64,000 nt of DNA from a bacterium (GTDB taxonomy: Bacteria; UBA10199; 2-02-FULL-50-16; JAJFLM01), in the NCBI GenBank assembly GCA_965216315.1, contig CBDCFN010000016.1:1536001-1600000 (forward strand). The letters run 5' to 3'. The translations under genes were made by a program, and so were the position numbers. Position 1 is the stretch's first letter. Every line of letters starts with the position of its first letter. The notes beneath the pieces are model-generated. The model was not told the DNA's origin and made no database searches. It was given only the letters and a program-made list of their open reading frames with translations. Below are positions 2,300 through 22,633 of the stretch, in pieces.

Positions 2300-3961
2300 A
2301 TGTCCACGGTCATGGGAACAACACCGTTTATGTCAGCCAGCTTGCTTGCAAGTAGCCGTTTTCCTCAAATCACCTCACAACTTGATCATATTCAGCACCG
2401 CCAGTTGGGCGACAGCTTCTTAGGGCAGCTCAGCGACGCCGATATTTTTATCGCTGACATTTCCTGTTTGCGAAATGATCAGTGGCTGCATCGCATGGAC
2501 ATGGCCGGGTCTCTCAGCACGATCGAGAGGATCCTTGGCGAATTTAAAGGAACGACCTCTCATTCTCACCTTGCGGTTGTTCGTGAAAACGAGGTCCCCT
2601 CACCGGTCGCCCAACGCATTGTCACTGCGCGACCCGCATTGAAATCAAGCAACCGCGAATTCCACATCGAGGGCTATTTTCAACCTTTCGCGACGCAGAC
2701 GCTCGATGCCAATCGGCTGCAACCCGTAAAGGGGCTCACTCGCGACTCGAAGCTGTCATTCTATCCCCCTCCCTATGTGCCTCTCAATACACAGGACGAA
2801 TACAAGATTCTGCAAATGCTCGAGTACGCCGGCATCCACTACGAAACTCCGCGTTGCGATGCCGCTCGTTACGGTGTCACTGCATTTGATGCGGGACGTC
2901 GCTTTGTCTTCAAGACAAACCTAGACTTCATTACCTTCGACTGGGATCACACGCTCAGCAATTACCAGATCTTTGAAGAAATTGCCCCCATCATTCGCGC
3001 CAAGCTTTCCAAGCAAGAGCCACCGGAGGCCTTGGCTGAACGCCCCATGACCGCCCTCGAAGTGGCGCGCCCTTTTATGCAGGAATTGGTATTGGGCATG
3101 ATGGTCGGTTATGCTTTTAGGCAAGGACTAACTAATTTCCAGCAATGGGAGCAATACAAGCCACAAGTCGGTATTGTCACTCATACTTGGCCTGACCGTT
3201 TGGGCGTGCTCGCTGAACACTTCGTCCGTTTGTTACCGCTGATGGAGGGATTACTACCCGGAACACCTGGCGTCTATAACTGGATGACACATTCCGATGT
3301 CCGTTCGATCACCCACCTGCATCACTTCTTAAGTTACGCCGAAAGTCTGCTCCGCAAATTCGAACATGTCGGCCTGGAAGGACTGACAGAAACCGAACAA
3401 GCGGAATTGATGGGCTACATGGAAGACGGCAAGGCCCATTATCGAAAACCCTTGGGGACCTTGGCCATGCGCGGTTGGGAATTTTCCAGTCTGCTTCATT
3501 TTGACGACTCAACCAAGGTCATCAATGACTTAGTCGAACACGTACACGCCGAAGCCATCCGCGGCCTTTGGGTGCGCCAACCGCATTCAAAAAAACTTGA
3601 TGTCGGTGAGCTCAATAAAATCGTGCTCTCCTCACTCTGGCGTTCACGAGAGGCGGCACGCCTACGCGCCGCACGCAACCTGATTCGCGCCGAAGAACAG
3701 GGGTTCACCCTGCCGTATGTGCTCAGTGCCATGCAGATGTTCAGCGTCACGCGCCAAACCGACCAGTTGGCCTATCGCGCGCCCCTGCCCGCCGGTACGG
3801 TTTTCCGGCTCCATGAAACCCCGACCACCGTCGGTGAGTACTGGCGTTACTATGTGAACCCCACCAATCGCCTCAAGCAGCAGGTGCGCGCCGTGCGCAA
3901 AGCGGCCGGCGGTCTGCGCGCACTGCGGCATCAATATAAAGAAATCCGAAAAAAACCCTAA
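2300..3961 (+). CDS. Divergent HAD-superfamily phosphatase-like protein with Ser/Thr-rich LLASS leader
   Basis: Motif I FITFDWDHT (DxDxT), motif II GIVT, motif III RKP, motif IV LLHFDD in order. Confidence 0.6.
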   Translation: MSTVMGTTPFMSASLLASSRFPQITSQLDHIQHRQLGDSFLGQLSDADIFIADISCLRNDQWLHRMDMAGSLSTIERILGEFKGTTSHSHLAVVRENEVPSPVAQRIVTARPALKSSNREFHIEGYFQPFATQTLDANRLQPVKGLTRDSKLSFYPPPYVPLNTQDEYKILQMLEYAGIHYETPRCDAARYGVTAFDAGRRFVFKTNLDFITFDWDHTLSNYQIFEEIAPIIRAKLSKQEPPEALAERPMTALEVARPFMQELVLGMMVGYAFRQGLTNFQQWEQYKPQVGIVTHTWPDRLGVLAEHFVRLLPLMEGLLPGTPGVYNWMTHSDVRSITHLHHFLSYAESLLRKFEHVGLEGLTETEQAELMGYMEDGKAHYRKPLGTLAMRGWEFSSLLHFDDSTKVINDLVEHVHAEAIRGLWVRQPHSKKLDVGELNKIVLSSLWRSREAARLRAARNLIRAEEQGFTLPYVLSAMQMFSVTRQTDQLAYRAPLPAGTVFRLHETPTTVGEYWRYYVNPTNRLKQQVRAVRKAAGGLRALRHQYKEIRKKP

Positions 3962-4019
3962 AAAACAGGTTTTTCGGCCCCATTTTTAACTTATCGCAAG
4001 AGAATTCCTCAGTTTTTAC

Positions 4020-4046
4020 GCAACATTAGCCCATTCAGCGCGAGAA
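4020..4046 (+). promoter_or_regulatory. Putative sigma28-like promoter, copy 2 (weaker downstream box)
   Basis: GCAAC-attagcccattcag-CGCGAGAA upstream of ATG 4099. Confidence 0.5.
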
Positions 4047-4057
4047 TGCCCTTAAGT

Positions 4058-4073
4058 GGAGTCATATGACTCC
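4058..4073. promoter_or_regulatory. Perfect 16-bp palindrome (operator or 5'UTR hairpin)
   Basis: GGAGTCATATGACTCC equals its own reverse complement. Confidence 0.6.
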
Positions 4074-4098
4074 GTAGTGGTGTAACTGAGGGAGATTT

Positions 4099-20591: not shown

Positions 20592-20630
20592 AAAAAAAGG
20601 CGGCCTGCATCACGTGGGCCGCCTTTTTTT
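20592..20630. terminator. Bidirectional intrinsic terminator
   Basis: A7-GGCGGCC...GGCCGCC-T7 between convergent genes. Confidence 0.85.
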
Positions 20631-21225
20631 ATGCCTGCTCCTGGACCCTGATTTCTTTGGCCTTACGGCGCCGCATAAAGACAAAGACCGTCATCGCAAT
20701 CGCAATAGCGCCTGCAATGGCAACGGCCCATAAGCCACGTTGCGCCAAACGACGCAGCTTGGCATCAAAGTTATGGGCAATCGACATGACGACATTACTG
20801 CCTTGCTGGCCTTCGACGTAGAACGCCGTCAATACATAGGGACCCGGCGCGTCGACCGTAAAATCAAAAACCGAGACACCGGCATGCGAACCGGCGGCAA
20901 ACTCCGACAGATTGGAAGCATCATTGAGTAAAAGATAATTGCCGTTTTCTTTCGATTGGAGCTCGCAGAGGAGGCCCGAAAGCACAGGTCCCGTCGCATA
21001 ACGCCGCCCGCCGACCTCACTTTCATACTCATAGAACATCGTATAATATCCCGGCTGGTCGAGATTGACGACAAAGGATCCGGGAAGCACAACACGTTCC
21101 ATATTGGCGGCGAGCTTGGAAATACCGCCATGCAAAGACCAGGCAAAATAGGCAATGCCCGCCCCCAATACGAGAACGGCCAACAGATAATAGCGTCGAC
21201 CCGGTTTAAGGCGGTGATACTCCAT
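20629..21225 (-). CDS. Hypothetical protein with two TM helices flanking a beta-rich domain
   Basis: TM at both ends, basic C-tail; ORF-track start 21363 overlaps the divergent gene, so trimmed. Confidence 0.65.
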   Translation of the reverse strand: MEYHRLKPGRRYYLLAVLVLGAGIAYFAWSLHGGISKLAANMERVVLPGSFVVNLDQPGYYTMFYEYESEVGGRRYATGPVLSGLLCELQSKENGNYLLLNDASNLSEFAAGSHAGVSVFDFTVDAPGPYVLTAFYVEGQQGSNVVMSIAHNFDAKLRRLAQRGLWAVAIAGAIAIAMTVFVFMRRRKAKEIRVQEQA

Positions 21226-21265
21226 CTCCTTTAAAATACTACGTTTTTCAGCGAAAAGCGAGTCC

Positions 21266-21292
21266 GCAACCTTCCCTGCACTCAACCGAAAA
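21266..21292 (+). promoter_or_regulatory. Putative sigma28-like promoter, copy 6
   Basis: GCAAC-cttccctgcactca-ACCGAAAA, 9 nt before ATG 21302. Confidence 0.65.
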
Positions 21293-21301
21293 GCCCCTAA
21301 C

Positions 21302-22633
21302 ATGCTCTCAATCGCCTCCACGACCACCATGAGTCTCCATGCGGTGCCTTTATTGGCCGCCAATAATTTCGTCGCGACTCAGCCGGAACTAAGCGCTCAG
21401 CTGCAGTTGGTCACCGAACAGGGACTCCGGACTCAACTGCTCTCTACTTTAAGAGATCGTGGCGTGGCCGTTGAAAACTATACGGACTTGAGTAAGGCAT
21501 CCGTGCTTGAAGATAGGGACATCAGTGATCGCCTCCGTTTTGCGTTGCGAACCACACTCGATGATCCCCAGCCCGCTTTCCGGACAAAGCAACTCGTCGC
21601 TCTTCCCGATATTCTTACAATCCCGTGGCCCTCGAAGGTCCGTCGGCACTTTAAAGAAAGTACGGGACAGTCACGCTGGCTGCTCAAGCCCGAGGGCTTT
21701 GACATGCGCCGCGAATTAAGGCGCTTCGCACGCGACCAACACAAAGGGCGCATTCGCTATCCGCAAAGTGCCCGTGAACATGCCAGTTGGGTCGCAGCGA
21801 TTCGACGTCAACAACATTTAGGCCGGACCATTGCGTGGCACAAGCCGCGTCACGGAGTTCAAGAGATTCTTAACTTCCTTAATATTCGCATTCAGCCACG
21901 CGGGAAAATTCCGGAATCAATCAATCCGGACCTGCTCGGTTTTCAACGGCTCGGAACGGCCAATCCCTTGCCCGGCGATCTCATGACTTACTCGATTGCT
22001 TTTTTCACGAGCGCAGCCATTGTAACGCAGAGTACCTGGGACGCTACCGCCGCCGAAGTGATGGTCCTCGGGGGCCGTTCAACGTTTTTAACCCGCCCCG
22101 AAAACGTCGGAACGCGACCCGAATATTGGCGCTTTATCCCGGAACGAAAGCCGGAGCTACTCGTCACTTCGGGCTCACGCCTGGATCAAGTGGACTTTAA
22201 GGCGCCGACTCATGAAAACGTGTTAAAGCCTTTGGCGTCACAGCTGCGATTCAAGGCCAAGGCTTTCACGGTGCTCGAAAGTCATGCGGGTCCGGCGCTG
22301 GGAATGGATGCTTGGCAGGTCCTCTATGAATTGGCCAATTCAGACTCCGCAATTCTGACCTTTCAGCTCCTCGGTCGCGGTCAACAACGCCGTTTGGCCG
22401 TCGCCATTCGCTATTTCCAAGCAATTCACAGTGACCGCTTCCACTTCCTGAGCTCCGCCGAGCGCGCCCTACGTGACTTAGCGCGATCCTACGAATTAAG
22501 GCGGCTGGATATCTACTATCCTTTGTGCACTCGTGACAGCATGAGACGCGCGCTCAAACGCAGGCGTTATAGCCCCCTGCGCTCCCCATTTCACGGCAAA
22601 ATCCTCGGAAAGCGAATTATTCTGACCAGTTGA
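21302..22633 (+). CDS. Hypothetical Arg-rich protein with Ser/Thr-rich LLAAN leader
   Basis: 443-aa ORF, no family recognised. Confidence 0.65.
   Translation: MLSIASTTTMSLHAVPLLAANNFVATQPELSAQLQLVTEQGLRTQLLSTLRDRGVAVENYTDLSKASVLEDRDISDRLRFALRTTLDDPQPAFRTKQLVALPDILTIPWPSKVRRHFKESTGQSRWLLKPEGFDMRRELRRFARDQHKGRIRYPQSAREHASWVAAIRRQQHLGRTIAWHKPRHGVQEILNFLNIRIQPRGKIPESINPDLLGFQRLGTANPLPGDLMTYSIAFFTSAAIVTQSTWDATAAEVMVLGGRSTFLTRPENVGTRPEYWRFIPERKPELLVTSGSRLDQVDFKAPTHENVLKPLASQLRFKAKAFTVLESHAGPALGMDAWQVLYELANSDSAILTFQLLGRGQQRRLAVAIRYFQAIHSDRFHFLSSAERALRDLARSYELRRLDIYYPLCTRDSMRRALKRRRYSPLRSPFHGKILGKRIILTS

Follow-up and report, generated by a model that had tools for sequence, protein, structure and literature searches.

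Introduction

Substrates of type III secretion systems (T3SS) are hard to predict, as their N-terminal signals normally lack a consensus. In Pseudomonas syringae, effectors were found by combining the hrp box with N-terminal rules, namely the absence of Asp and Glu from the first 12 residues and the presence of Ile, Leu, Val or Pro at residue 3 or 4 (PMC3009519). Effectors that depend on Spa15/InvB carry a conserved domain for chaperone binding (CCBD) at residues 25–45, which is bound by class IB chaperones and whose motif has been called the first defined sequence common to effectors (PMC3280449). In Chlamydia, glycogen enzymes are secreted by type III secretion, and of six N-terminal fusions tried in Shigella, five were secreted (PMC4829429). 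In Bdellovibrio bacteriovorus, the FliA consensus TTAAG-N16-CCGATA was found at 92 of 140 attack-phase promoters (PMC3627812). The T3SS* of Myxococcus xanthus is described as needleless and without a secretin of its own, is thought to work with the Tad pilus, and has effectors given as unknown (PMC12075869). Excerpts of these five papers are the basis of the comparisons made here. We analysed a stretch of 64,000 nt, referred to as the window (G000:C16:1536001-1600000), from an uncultured bacterium (assembly GCA_965216315.1; 2.96 Mb, 16 contigs, rated 98% complete). Six proteins encoded between window positions 2300 and 22633 begin with an uncharged, Ser/Thr-rich "LLASS" leader. We slightly favour the explanation that this leader is the N-terminal export signal of T3SS substrates, in a lineage-specific and stereotyped form, carried by a sigma-28-type effector regulon.

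The nearest analogy in the excerpted literature is the HrpL regulon of P. syringae, with its hrp box and N-terminal rules. Both regulons combine a sigma factor encoded with the T3SS, scattered genes for effectors (candidate effectors here), a recognisable bipartite promoter and rules on N-terminal composition. HrpL is an ECF-type (extracytoplasmic function) sigma factor, whereas the sigma factor described here is FliA/WhiG-like and the promoter is of the sigma-28 type. Further differences are that basic residues are barred from the leader too, that the leader has a defined LLA[AS]S core, that about half of the genes look leaderless at the mRNA level, and that the T3SS lacks a recognisable secretin.

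The leader family

An earlier note on the window had pointed out six Ser/Thr-rich LLASS leaders, and all six were found where it had placed them. For the genes starting at 2300 (+), 4099 (+), 4923 (+), 7629 (+), 11215 (−) and 21302 (+), the peptide begins at the first in-frame start codon past the upstream stop (6/6). The first charged residues, counted from zero, were at index 19 (2300), 55 (4099), 35 (7629), 47 (11215) and 28 (21302); in the 4923 protein it is residue 39 (Asp), as read by eye from the translation.

Genome-wide, the family proved larger than these six. Sets of open reading frames (ORFs) were made with our own greedy longest-ORF caller and no gene finder. Among the 2522 ORFs with a length of 80 aa or more, a crude rule (no D/E/K/R in residues 1–18 and [LVG]LA[SA][SAN] in residues 9–28) picked 21, including one obviously false case, a NuoJ-like membrane protein. 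The best matches of a hidden Markov model (HMM) of 20 good leaders among 18,054 stop-to-stop frames lay nearly all at the starts of long ORFs; the sole exception in the top 20 was a 60-residue frame without a start codon. After start choice, the HMM yielded a strict "LLASS" set of 28 genes. A looser set comprised 94 proteins that are uncharged through residue 18 and encoded behind a match to the promoter described below. All-against-all BLASTP detected only two related pairs among the 28 strict-set proteins. The bodies of the leader proteins are unrelated, in agreement with the first impression from the window that they mostly differ.

The motif [LVI]LA[AS][SANG] occurred 57 times per 75,660 residues within the first 30 residues of proteins (0.75 per 1000) and 80 times per 838,683 residues in their interior (0.095 per 1000), an eight times higher density at the N-terminus. 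Residues 2–22 of the leaders (n = 94) consisted of 17.3% Leu, 17.0% Ala, 15.8% Ser and 10.1% Thr, compared with 6.2% Ser and 5.4% Thr in the proteome. Asp, Glu, Lys and Arg together made up less than 1% of these residues, the absence of Lys and Arg through residue 18 following from the definition of the set. The uncharged stretch was 18–55 residues long and consisted to 60% of Ser, Thr, Ala and Leu, with the first charged residue at a median position of 29. The core, [LVI]-L-A-[AS]-[S/N/G], started at residues 8–27 (median 17) in the 32 proteins with the strict pattern.

Like T3SS signals, the leader lies in the first 20–25 residues, is rich in Ser and Thr, and has no acidic residue within the first 12 (0 of 94 proteins). 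Ile, Leu, Val or Pro was present at residue 3 or 4 in 60 of the 94, compared with 1192 of 2522 ORFs genome-wide. The leader also resembles the CCBD, as excerpted, in being a short defined N-terminal pattern on otherwise unrelated proteins that is usable for genome mining. However, the CCBD pattern (LMIF)xxx(IV)xx(IV)xN was absent from residues 20–60 of all 94 proteins, no CesT-type chaperone was detected (a weak test), and the LLASS core falls within residues 8–27, the site of the secretion signal proper.

A Sec, Tat or lipoprotein identity of the leader was rejected, as the earlier note had argued. The strongest 10-residue hydropathy had a median of 1.61 in leaders and 2.74 in lipobox proteins, and values of at least 2.5 were reached by 1% and 75% of them, respectively. 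The leaders have no basic n-region, none of the 94 proteins has a lipobox, and one has a Tat-like motif (C16:1318283, where a Tat-like signal follows the leader). At the motif positions, the invariant Leu was encoded by five codons, Ala by four, and Ser by both the AGY and the TCN boxes. With so many synonymous codons at conserved residues, the constraint, as judged from codon choice, is on the peptide and not on the RNA.

The promoter and its link to the leader

Most leader genes are preceded by the consensus CAAC(C/T)TT-N12-CCGA(T/A)(A/G)A. An early, narrow regular expression based on two sites missed most genes and was replaced by a position weight matrix (PWM; 22 sites, consensus CAACTTT-N12-CCGAnGA) and later by an untrained regular expression, AAC[ACT]T[ACT]-N12-[CG]CGA. 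The PWM had 216 genome matches of at least 15 bits, compared with 30 in a reversed-sequence control. Behind each match, we took the first ORF that starts with ATG and spans 80 aa or more, which gave 171 ORFs. No D/E/K/R was present in the first 18 residues of 94 of these (55%), compared with 172 of 2522 (6.8%) genome-wide.

The co-occurrence of leader and promoter, part of the original claim, also held with the untrained expression. Within 150 nt upstream, it matched 19 of 28 strict-leader genes and 83 of 2494 other ORFs (odds ratio 61, P = 3e-21); within 100 nt, it matched 50 of 172 ORFs with an uncharged N-terminus and 40 of 2350 others (odds ratio 23.7, P = 2e-37). The textbook sigma-28 −10 octamer, with at most one mismatch, was found at 44 of the 172 and 185 of the 2350.

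By its motif and spacing, the promoter has sigma-28/FliA architecture, with a CCGA-type −10 element and about 15–16 nt between the cores, as in the Bdellovibrio FliA consensus. In excerpt, the Bdellovibrio FliA regulon is likewise a case of a sigma-28-type promoter taken over for a global programme, with well over 100 promoters and many non-flagellar genes; its TTAAG-N16-CCGATA compares with CAAC-N15-CCGA here. In contrast to Bdellovibrio, the genome studied here has no flagellin and only a non-flagellar T3SS. The Bdellovibrio excerpts do not speak of a common N-terminal leader, for which no aimed search of that paper was made.

For 47 of the 94 genes with uncharged N-termini, 6–11 nt separate the −10 box from the ATG, and the mRNAs of these 47 are therefore probably leaderless. 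The other half have 5' leaders of 13–93 nt. That the true starts lie downstream of the leaders, a concern raised beforehand, is not the case: the −10 box often ends only 6–11 nt from the ATG of the leader, and another genus has retained the leader.

The sigma-28-type regulon also includes many genes of Sec or lipoprotein type and a repeated family starting MGCDLYGASNL.

Conservation in relatives

The leader profile had nine matches in G001, a genome of the same family but another genus, and two weak ones in G002; no match was obtained in G003, G010 or G004. The G001 matches were N-terminal, and a CAAC..-type box was seen by eye upstream of four of the seven inspected. The G001 orthologue of the 2300 protein has retained LLASS, the uncharged start and the box with its leaderless spacing (9 nt from the end of the box to the ATG). 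Residues 20–140 have diverged between the two proteins, and other similarity sets in only from residue 144. More distant homologues of the 2300 protein have N-termini that are uncharged but different. The promoter was also present in 400 kb of G023, a genome of another family, with 22 matches compared with 2 in the control.

Secretion machinery and sigma factor

The earlier note had asked for genes of export machines, of which a T3SS was found, whereas searches of the genome for TssC, the phage-type sheath, VirB4 and flagellin (Flagellin_N) gave no match; control genomes did give flagellin matches. One FHIPEP gene was present (E = 1.3e-236). The T3SS cluster encodes two FHA/YscD-type proteins (FHA + Yop-YscD_cpl), YscJ (YscJ_FliF), SctL (FliH), the SctN ATPase and YscO, together with a FliK/HpaP-like protein, FliM/FliN-like proteins and homologues of FliO, FliP, FliQ (Bac_export_3) and FliR/SctT. 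SctU (Bac_export_2) is encoded outside the cluster, at C16:805026. By family matches, the injectisome export gate (SctV and SctR/S/T/U), the SctN/L/O ATPase complex and the inner-membrane rings SctJ/SctD are thus present. Judged by its gene content, the secretion machine is a non-flagellar T3SS, the single one in the genome.

The cluster also encodes a 299-aa sigma factor whose best match was FliA/WhiG (TIGR02479, E = 1.3e-38). It is the only FliA/WhiG-like candidate among five genes with sigma-70 region 2. One of the other four was scanned and is RpoH; RpoD (591 aa) and two ECF-type factors (197 and 198 aa) were assigned by ORF length only. Control by a sigma-28-type factor would fit both this gene and the promoter architecture. 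A 162-aa ORF without a family match (G000:C16:351407-351895) overlaps the stop of the FliA-like sigma gene and, by its position alone, may encode an anti-sigma (FlgM-like) partner. Elsewhere, an ECF-type sigma gene (G000:C16:2109985-2110182) lies directly downstream of two paralogous leader genes (C16:2105347 and C16:2107571).

Two genes in the T3SS cluster, C16:360590 (717 aa) and C16:362938 (491 aa), have the same promoter and encode uncharged N-termini. They lie 6–9 kb upstream of genes for SycD/LcrH-like chaperones. Three such tetratricopeptide-repeat (TPR) proteins, with matches under the cut-off, are encoded beside large unknown proteins, in which no strong hydrophobic segment was found. 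The T3SS is of the same broad type as the excerpted Myxococcus T3SS* and likewise lacks its own secretin; for SctV, the best named matches among the collected genomes were to metagenome-assembled genomes (MAGs) of Archangium (53% identity). In contrast to Myxococcus, the cluster has the three SycD/LcrH-like TPR proteins and several large unknown proteins, so the system may not be translocon-less. A literature search for a T3SS in Bdellovibrionota MAGs listed nothing relevant.

Candidate cargo proteins

The Pfam scan covered the six window proteins, another 20 with strict leaders and 73 others among the 94; of these 73, 45 had no family match at E = 1e-4. Proteins of lipid and central metabolism included PlsC-type acyltransferases, a DAG-kinase-like (diacylglycerol kinase) domain, a malic enzyme, GDH and a PFK-like protein. 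Outside the window, at G000:C16:1632121-1639887 (−), a leader-bearing 2588-aa carboxylase combines biotin carboxylase, biotinyl, ACC_central and carboxyltransferase domains with a biotin-protein ligase fused at its C-terminus. The adjoining gene encodes a leader-bearing acyl-CoA synthetase, whose first 473 residues have a 93%-identical copy on the small contig C10.

A protein of 3854 aa resembling type I fatty acid synthase (FAS) is encoded at G000:C15:370007-381571 (+). It contains a MaoC dehydratase, a FabD-like (malonyl) transferase, an SDR ketoreductase and FabK-like parts; no ketosynthase was detected in it with Pfam. Among solved structures, it matched only FabD-type transacylases and one fungal-type dehydratase chain. 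A eukaryotic origin was considered for the big enzymes and rejected: there was no sign of a recent one, and the nearest solved relatives of the carboxylase are bacterial-type biotin carboxylases.

Signalling proteins in the set were two Ser/Thr kinases, two cyclase-AAA-TPR proteins, a GGDEF protein, a hybrid histidine kinase and a RelA/SpoT-like protein. Others were a GNAT acetyltransferase, a helicase, RtcB, HAD hydrolases, an EEP phosphatase/nuclease, FGE-sulfatase-domain and LamG proteins, and an aminotransferase whose gene adjoins that of a cysteine dioxygenase.

Leaderless, divergent paralogues of GDH, the malic enzyme, the PFK-like protein, biotin carboxylase and biotin ligase are encoded elsewhere in the genome. 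The catalytic domains of tagged copies start late (PFK at residue 79, the aminotransferase at 85, GDH at 78), which fits an added targeting region of 25–80 residues. In a tandem array of LamG genes (G000:C16:444170-456124), the paralogues have either an uncharged leader or a lipoprotein signal. Such alternation would be expected if the leader is an alternative export address. On inspection by eye, no more than about three members show a lipobox; the rest begin with the uncharged type of leader, and sigma-28-type promoters were found for two.

The cargo list, with its divergent enzyme copies and their 25–80-residue extensions, suggests 'metabolic effectors'. The chlamydial glycogen enzymes, as excerpted, are similar in being metabolic enzymes with N-terminal type III signals and no Sec signals that act outside the bacterium, which for the present proteins is a prediction only. 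They differ in that the enzymes here belong to lipid and central metabolism and are extra copies with long extensions.

Interpretation of the leader

In the mechanism that we propose, the leader would be recognised by the genome's single non-flagellar T3SS, and the FliA/WhiG-like sigma factor of the T3SS cluster would be the probable reader of the leader-gene promoters. As this factor is encoded in the T3SS cluster, the cargo would be made together with the machine or after it, from mRNAs that would be leaderless for about half of the regulon. The leader proteins would then leave the cell and might be delivered as 'metabolic effectors' to a host, to prey or to a compartment around the bacterium. 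The earlier note had seen in the leader its best candidate for an undescribed system. This is probably not what it is: a stereotyped, lineage-restricted T3SS N-terminal signal on a T3SS-linked sigma regulon would explain it. A bolder version holds that a secretin-less T3SS of an uncultured lineage with a small genome exports about 90 tagged proteins (about 3.5% of ORFs), among them nucleotide-signalling enzymes and a near-complete lipid-building toolkit, comprising the carboxylase-biotin ligase, the FAS-like megasynthase, the acyl-CoA synthetase, the PlsC-type acyltransferases, the DAG-kinase-like enzyme, the malic enzyme, the PFK-like protein and GDH. A metabolic pathway would thereby be installed in the host or prey, which would be more than mere manipulation, and T3SS would have in this tag their first address label that is simple and can be searched for. 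We regard this version as possible but doubtful.

Several observations weigh against export through the T3SS. The FliA match of the sigma factor scored 133 bits, under the NCBIfam cut-off of 189.6. No T3SS-associated secretin was found among the two Secretin matches in the genome. The strong one, of 988 aa, is encoded in an operon resembling a type II secretion system (T2SS), with GspE/F-like genes and pseudopilins as judged from ORF sizes and N-termini; the weak one is a 253-aa ORF far from the T3SS cluster. Searches for the gatekeeper HrpJ and for CesT gave no match, the CesT model also having failed to match in any control genome. No needle protein was identified, and no needle-family search was made. 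As every one of the 41 genomes of the class included in the search has FHIPEP, co-occurrence with the T3SS cannot discriminate. In G023, only 5 of 21 promoter-following ORFs had uncharged N-termini, and none had LLASS; the regulon therefore extends to at least one further family within the class, whereas the stereotyped tag was found only in the source family. The PWM was first trained on leader genes, which is why the enrichment was repeated with the plain regular expression.

The protein list contains difficult cases as well. Many bodies are ordinary cytoplasmic proteins that would be odd as effectors, such as the hybrid histidine kinase, the GGDEF protein, the two cyclase-AAA-TPR proteins, RtcB, the helicase, the FAS-like protein and the carboxylase-biotin ligase. 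The FAS-like protein might serve the cell itself, as no FabF/FabB-type ketosynthase was found in the genome, where two ORFs of 399 and 427 aa gave the only, weak ketoacyl-synthase matches. A GatA-like amidase without an N-terminal extension is probably a false positive among the 94. At G000:C16:1318283-1319518, a strict LLASS leader is directly followed by a Tat-like RR motif and a lipobox-like Cys, and the LamG paralogue at G000:C16:444170-445462 has a leader-like start followed by a hydrophobic region and a lipobox. These two are dual signals or alternative starts.

The intracellular character of so many bodies raises the question of whether the proteins leave the cell at all. The leader could instead be a cytoplasmic tag (a degron, a dock for a holding chaperone or a localisation signal) on stage-specific proteins of a sigma-28-type attack- or infective-phase regulon. 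Histidine kinase-receiver, GGDEF, cyclase-STAND, RelA/SpoT-like, RtcB and helicase proteins typically act inside cells, as do PFK-like, GDH, FAS-like and carboxylase-biotin ligase enzymes. The lack of any other detected ketosynthase and of an identifiable secretin, needle and gatekeeper would fit such a tag, and the excerpted account of Bdellovibrio has FliA driving a broad programme of the attack phase that has nothing to do with secretion (PMC3627812). Nevertheless, the leader is also borne by bodies of extracytoplasmic type (LamG, FGE-sulfatase domain), it alternates with lipoprotein signals in the LamG array, and genes in the T3SS cluster near translocator-type chaperone genes have the same leader type. 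A degron would have no need of extensions of 25–80 residues, and housekeeping paralogues of GDH, the malic enzyme, PFK, biotin carboxylase and biotin ligase do without the leader. An intracellular role is thus unlikely in our judgement; were it true, the tag would be a new kind of stage-specific intracellular label. We give still less credit to a truly new system in which the leader directs proteins to a route other than the T3SS, whether an unrecognised machine, vesicles or a two-step path via the T2SS-like pilus. The T3SS has no secretin of its own while the T2SS-like operon has one, the secretin-less Myxococcus T3SS* is thought, in excerpt, to work with the Tad pilus (PMC12075869), the motif is far more defined in sequence than usual T3SS signals, and two leaders precede Tat- or lipoprotein-type signals. 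However, the searches for TssC, sheath and VirB4 left no candidate machine, the sigma factor and leader-type genes lie inside the T3SS cluster, and enzymes that depend on ATP or NADPH would be of no use in the periplasm or in the medium.

Two further explanations dispense with a targeting signal. The shared N-terminus could reflect a requirement of leaderless, sigma-28-driven transcripts at the RNA level, in translation initiation or as an mRNA signal. Besides the 47 of 94 ORFs with an ATG 6–11 nt past the −10 box, this is favoured by the frequency of uncharged N-termini, which was 47 of 61 in genes with short spacing and 47 of 110 in those with longer spacing. The freely varying motif codons, the 5' leaders in half of the genes, and the position of the motif, 8–27 codons from the start at no fixed nucleotide distance, make it very improbable. 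Longest-ORF calling is crude, and some of the 94, such as the GatA-like protein, are likely false; a general artefact of wrongly extended ORFs or low-complexity N-termini is nevertheless effectively refuted by the enrichment of motif and promoter, by promoters immediately upstream of the leader ATG and by conservation of the leader in another genus.

Under the favoured explanation, a T3SS export signal, the combination of promoter and leader yields a clean, testable set of candidate substrates for a T3SS of the Myxococcus/Chlamydia-like branch; for this branch in Myxococcus, the portion of PMC12075869 drawn on here names no effectors. If export is true, the list would greatly extend the idea of 'metabolic effectors' and would offer a handle on the lifestyle of an uncultured lineage that has a T3SS in 41 of 41 genomes searched. 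The short tag might also be of use for directing proteins into T3SS.

Leader genes of the window

The first leader gene, at 2300..3961 (+), encodes a 553-aa protein (leader MSTVMGTTPFMSASLLASS) without a Pfam or NCBIfam match. Its sigma-28-type promoter (CAACCTT..GCCGAAGA) lies at 2267..2292 (+; PWM 22.6 bits), and as the −10 box ends only 7 nt from the ATG at 2300, the mRNA is probably leaderless. The family of this protein has a near-invariant F-D-W-D-H-T block and, further on, an H-x-D-D block, which resemble motifs I and IV of the HAD superfamily; the DxDxT-like FDWDHT block suggests a HAD-type hydrolase. Homologues were found in uncultured relatives only, and the family profile had no match to a solved structure in the PDB at E up to 1.

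The next two genes form a pair behind a promoter at 4021..4046 (+; 18.1 bits), 52 nt before the first ATG. The gene at 4099..4923 (+) encodes a 274-aa protein without a family match (leader MAFLAASTMTSQLGLTSVLASS), which has a long, uncharged N-terminal region rich in Ala, Thr and Pro and a single moderately hydrophobic segment. The gene at 4923..7550 (+) encodes an 875-aa protein with a weaker leader variant (...FLGLAAS) and two moderately hydrophobic segments. No promoter match of its own was found upstream with the PWM or the regular expression; as its start codon and the stop codon of the 4099 gene overlap (ATGA), the two are probably co-transcribed.

A promoter at 7592..7617 (+; 19.7 bits), with the −10 box ending 11 nt from the ATG at 7629, precedes the gene at 7629..9317 (+). 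Its 562-aa product (leader MTLLALNPALATSLLAAAAS) has a PlsC-type acyltransferase domain at residues 336–481 (Pfam PF01553, E = 6.9e-12). On the opposite strand, the gene at 9335..11215 (−) encodes a 626-aa protein (leader MTLSAFSTISMGSSALLASS) with a weak match to the same family, under the cut-off (PF01553, E = 0.0027); its promoter lies at 11301..11326 (−; 23.9 bits), 85 nt before the ATG. The sixth gene, at 21302..22633 (+), follows a promoter at 21267..21292 (+; 22.9 bits) whose −10 box ends 9 nt from the ATG. The 443-aa product (leader MLSIASTTTMSLHAVPLLAAN) had no family match and no usable match in the protein atlas.

A weaker extra member was found beyond the range covered by the earlier note, at 29317..31680 (+): a 748-aa ORF (29434-31680) whose N-terminus is uncharged (MIIQSGALQQLILGLNIATAQH) follows a 15.1-bit promoter at 29317-29342. 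A further sigma-28-type promoter at 16431-16456 (−; 17.8 bits) lies upstream of a small ORF at 15969-16382 whose N-terminus is charged.

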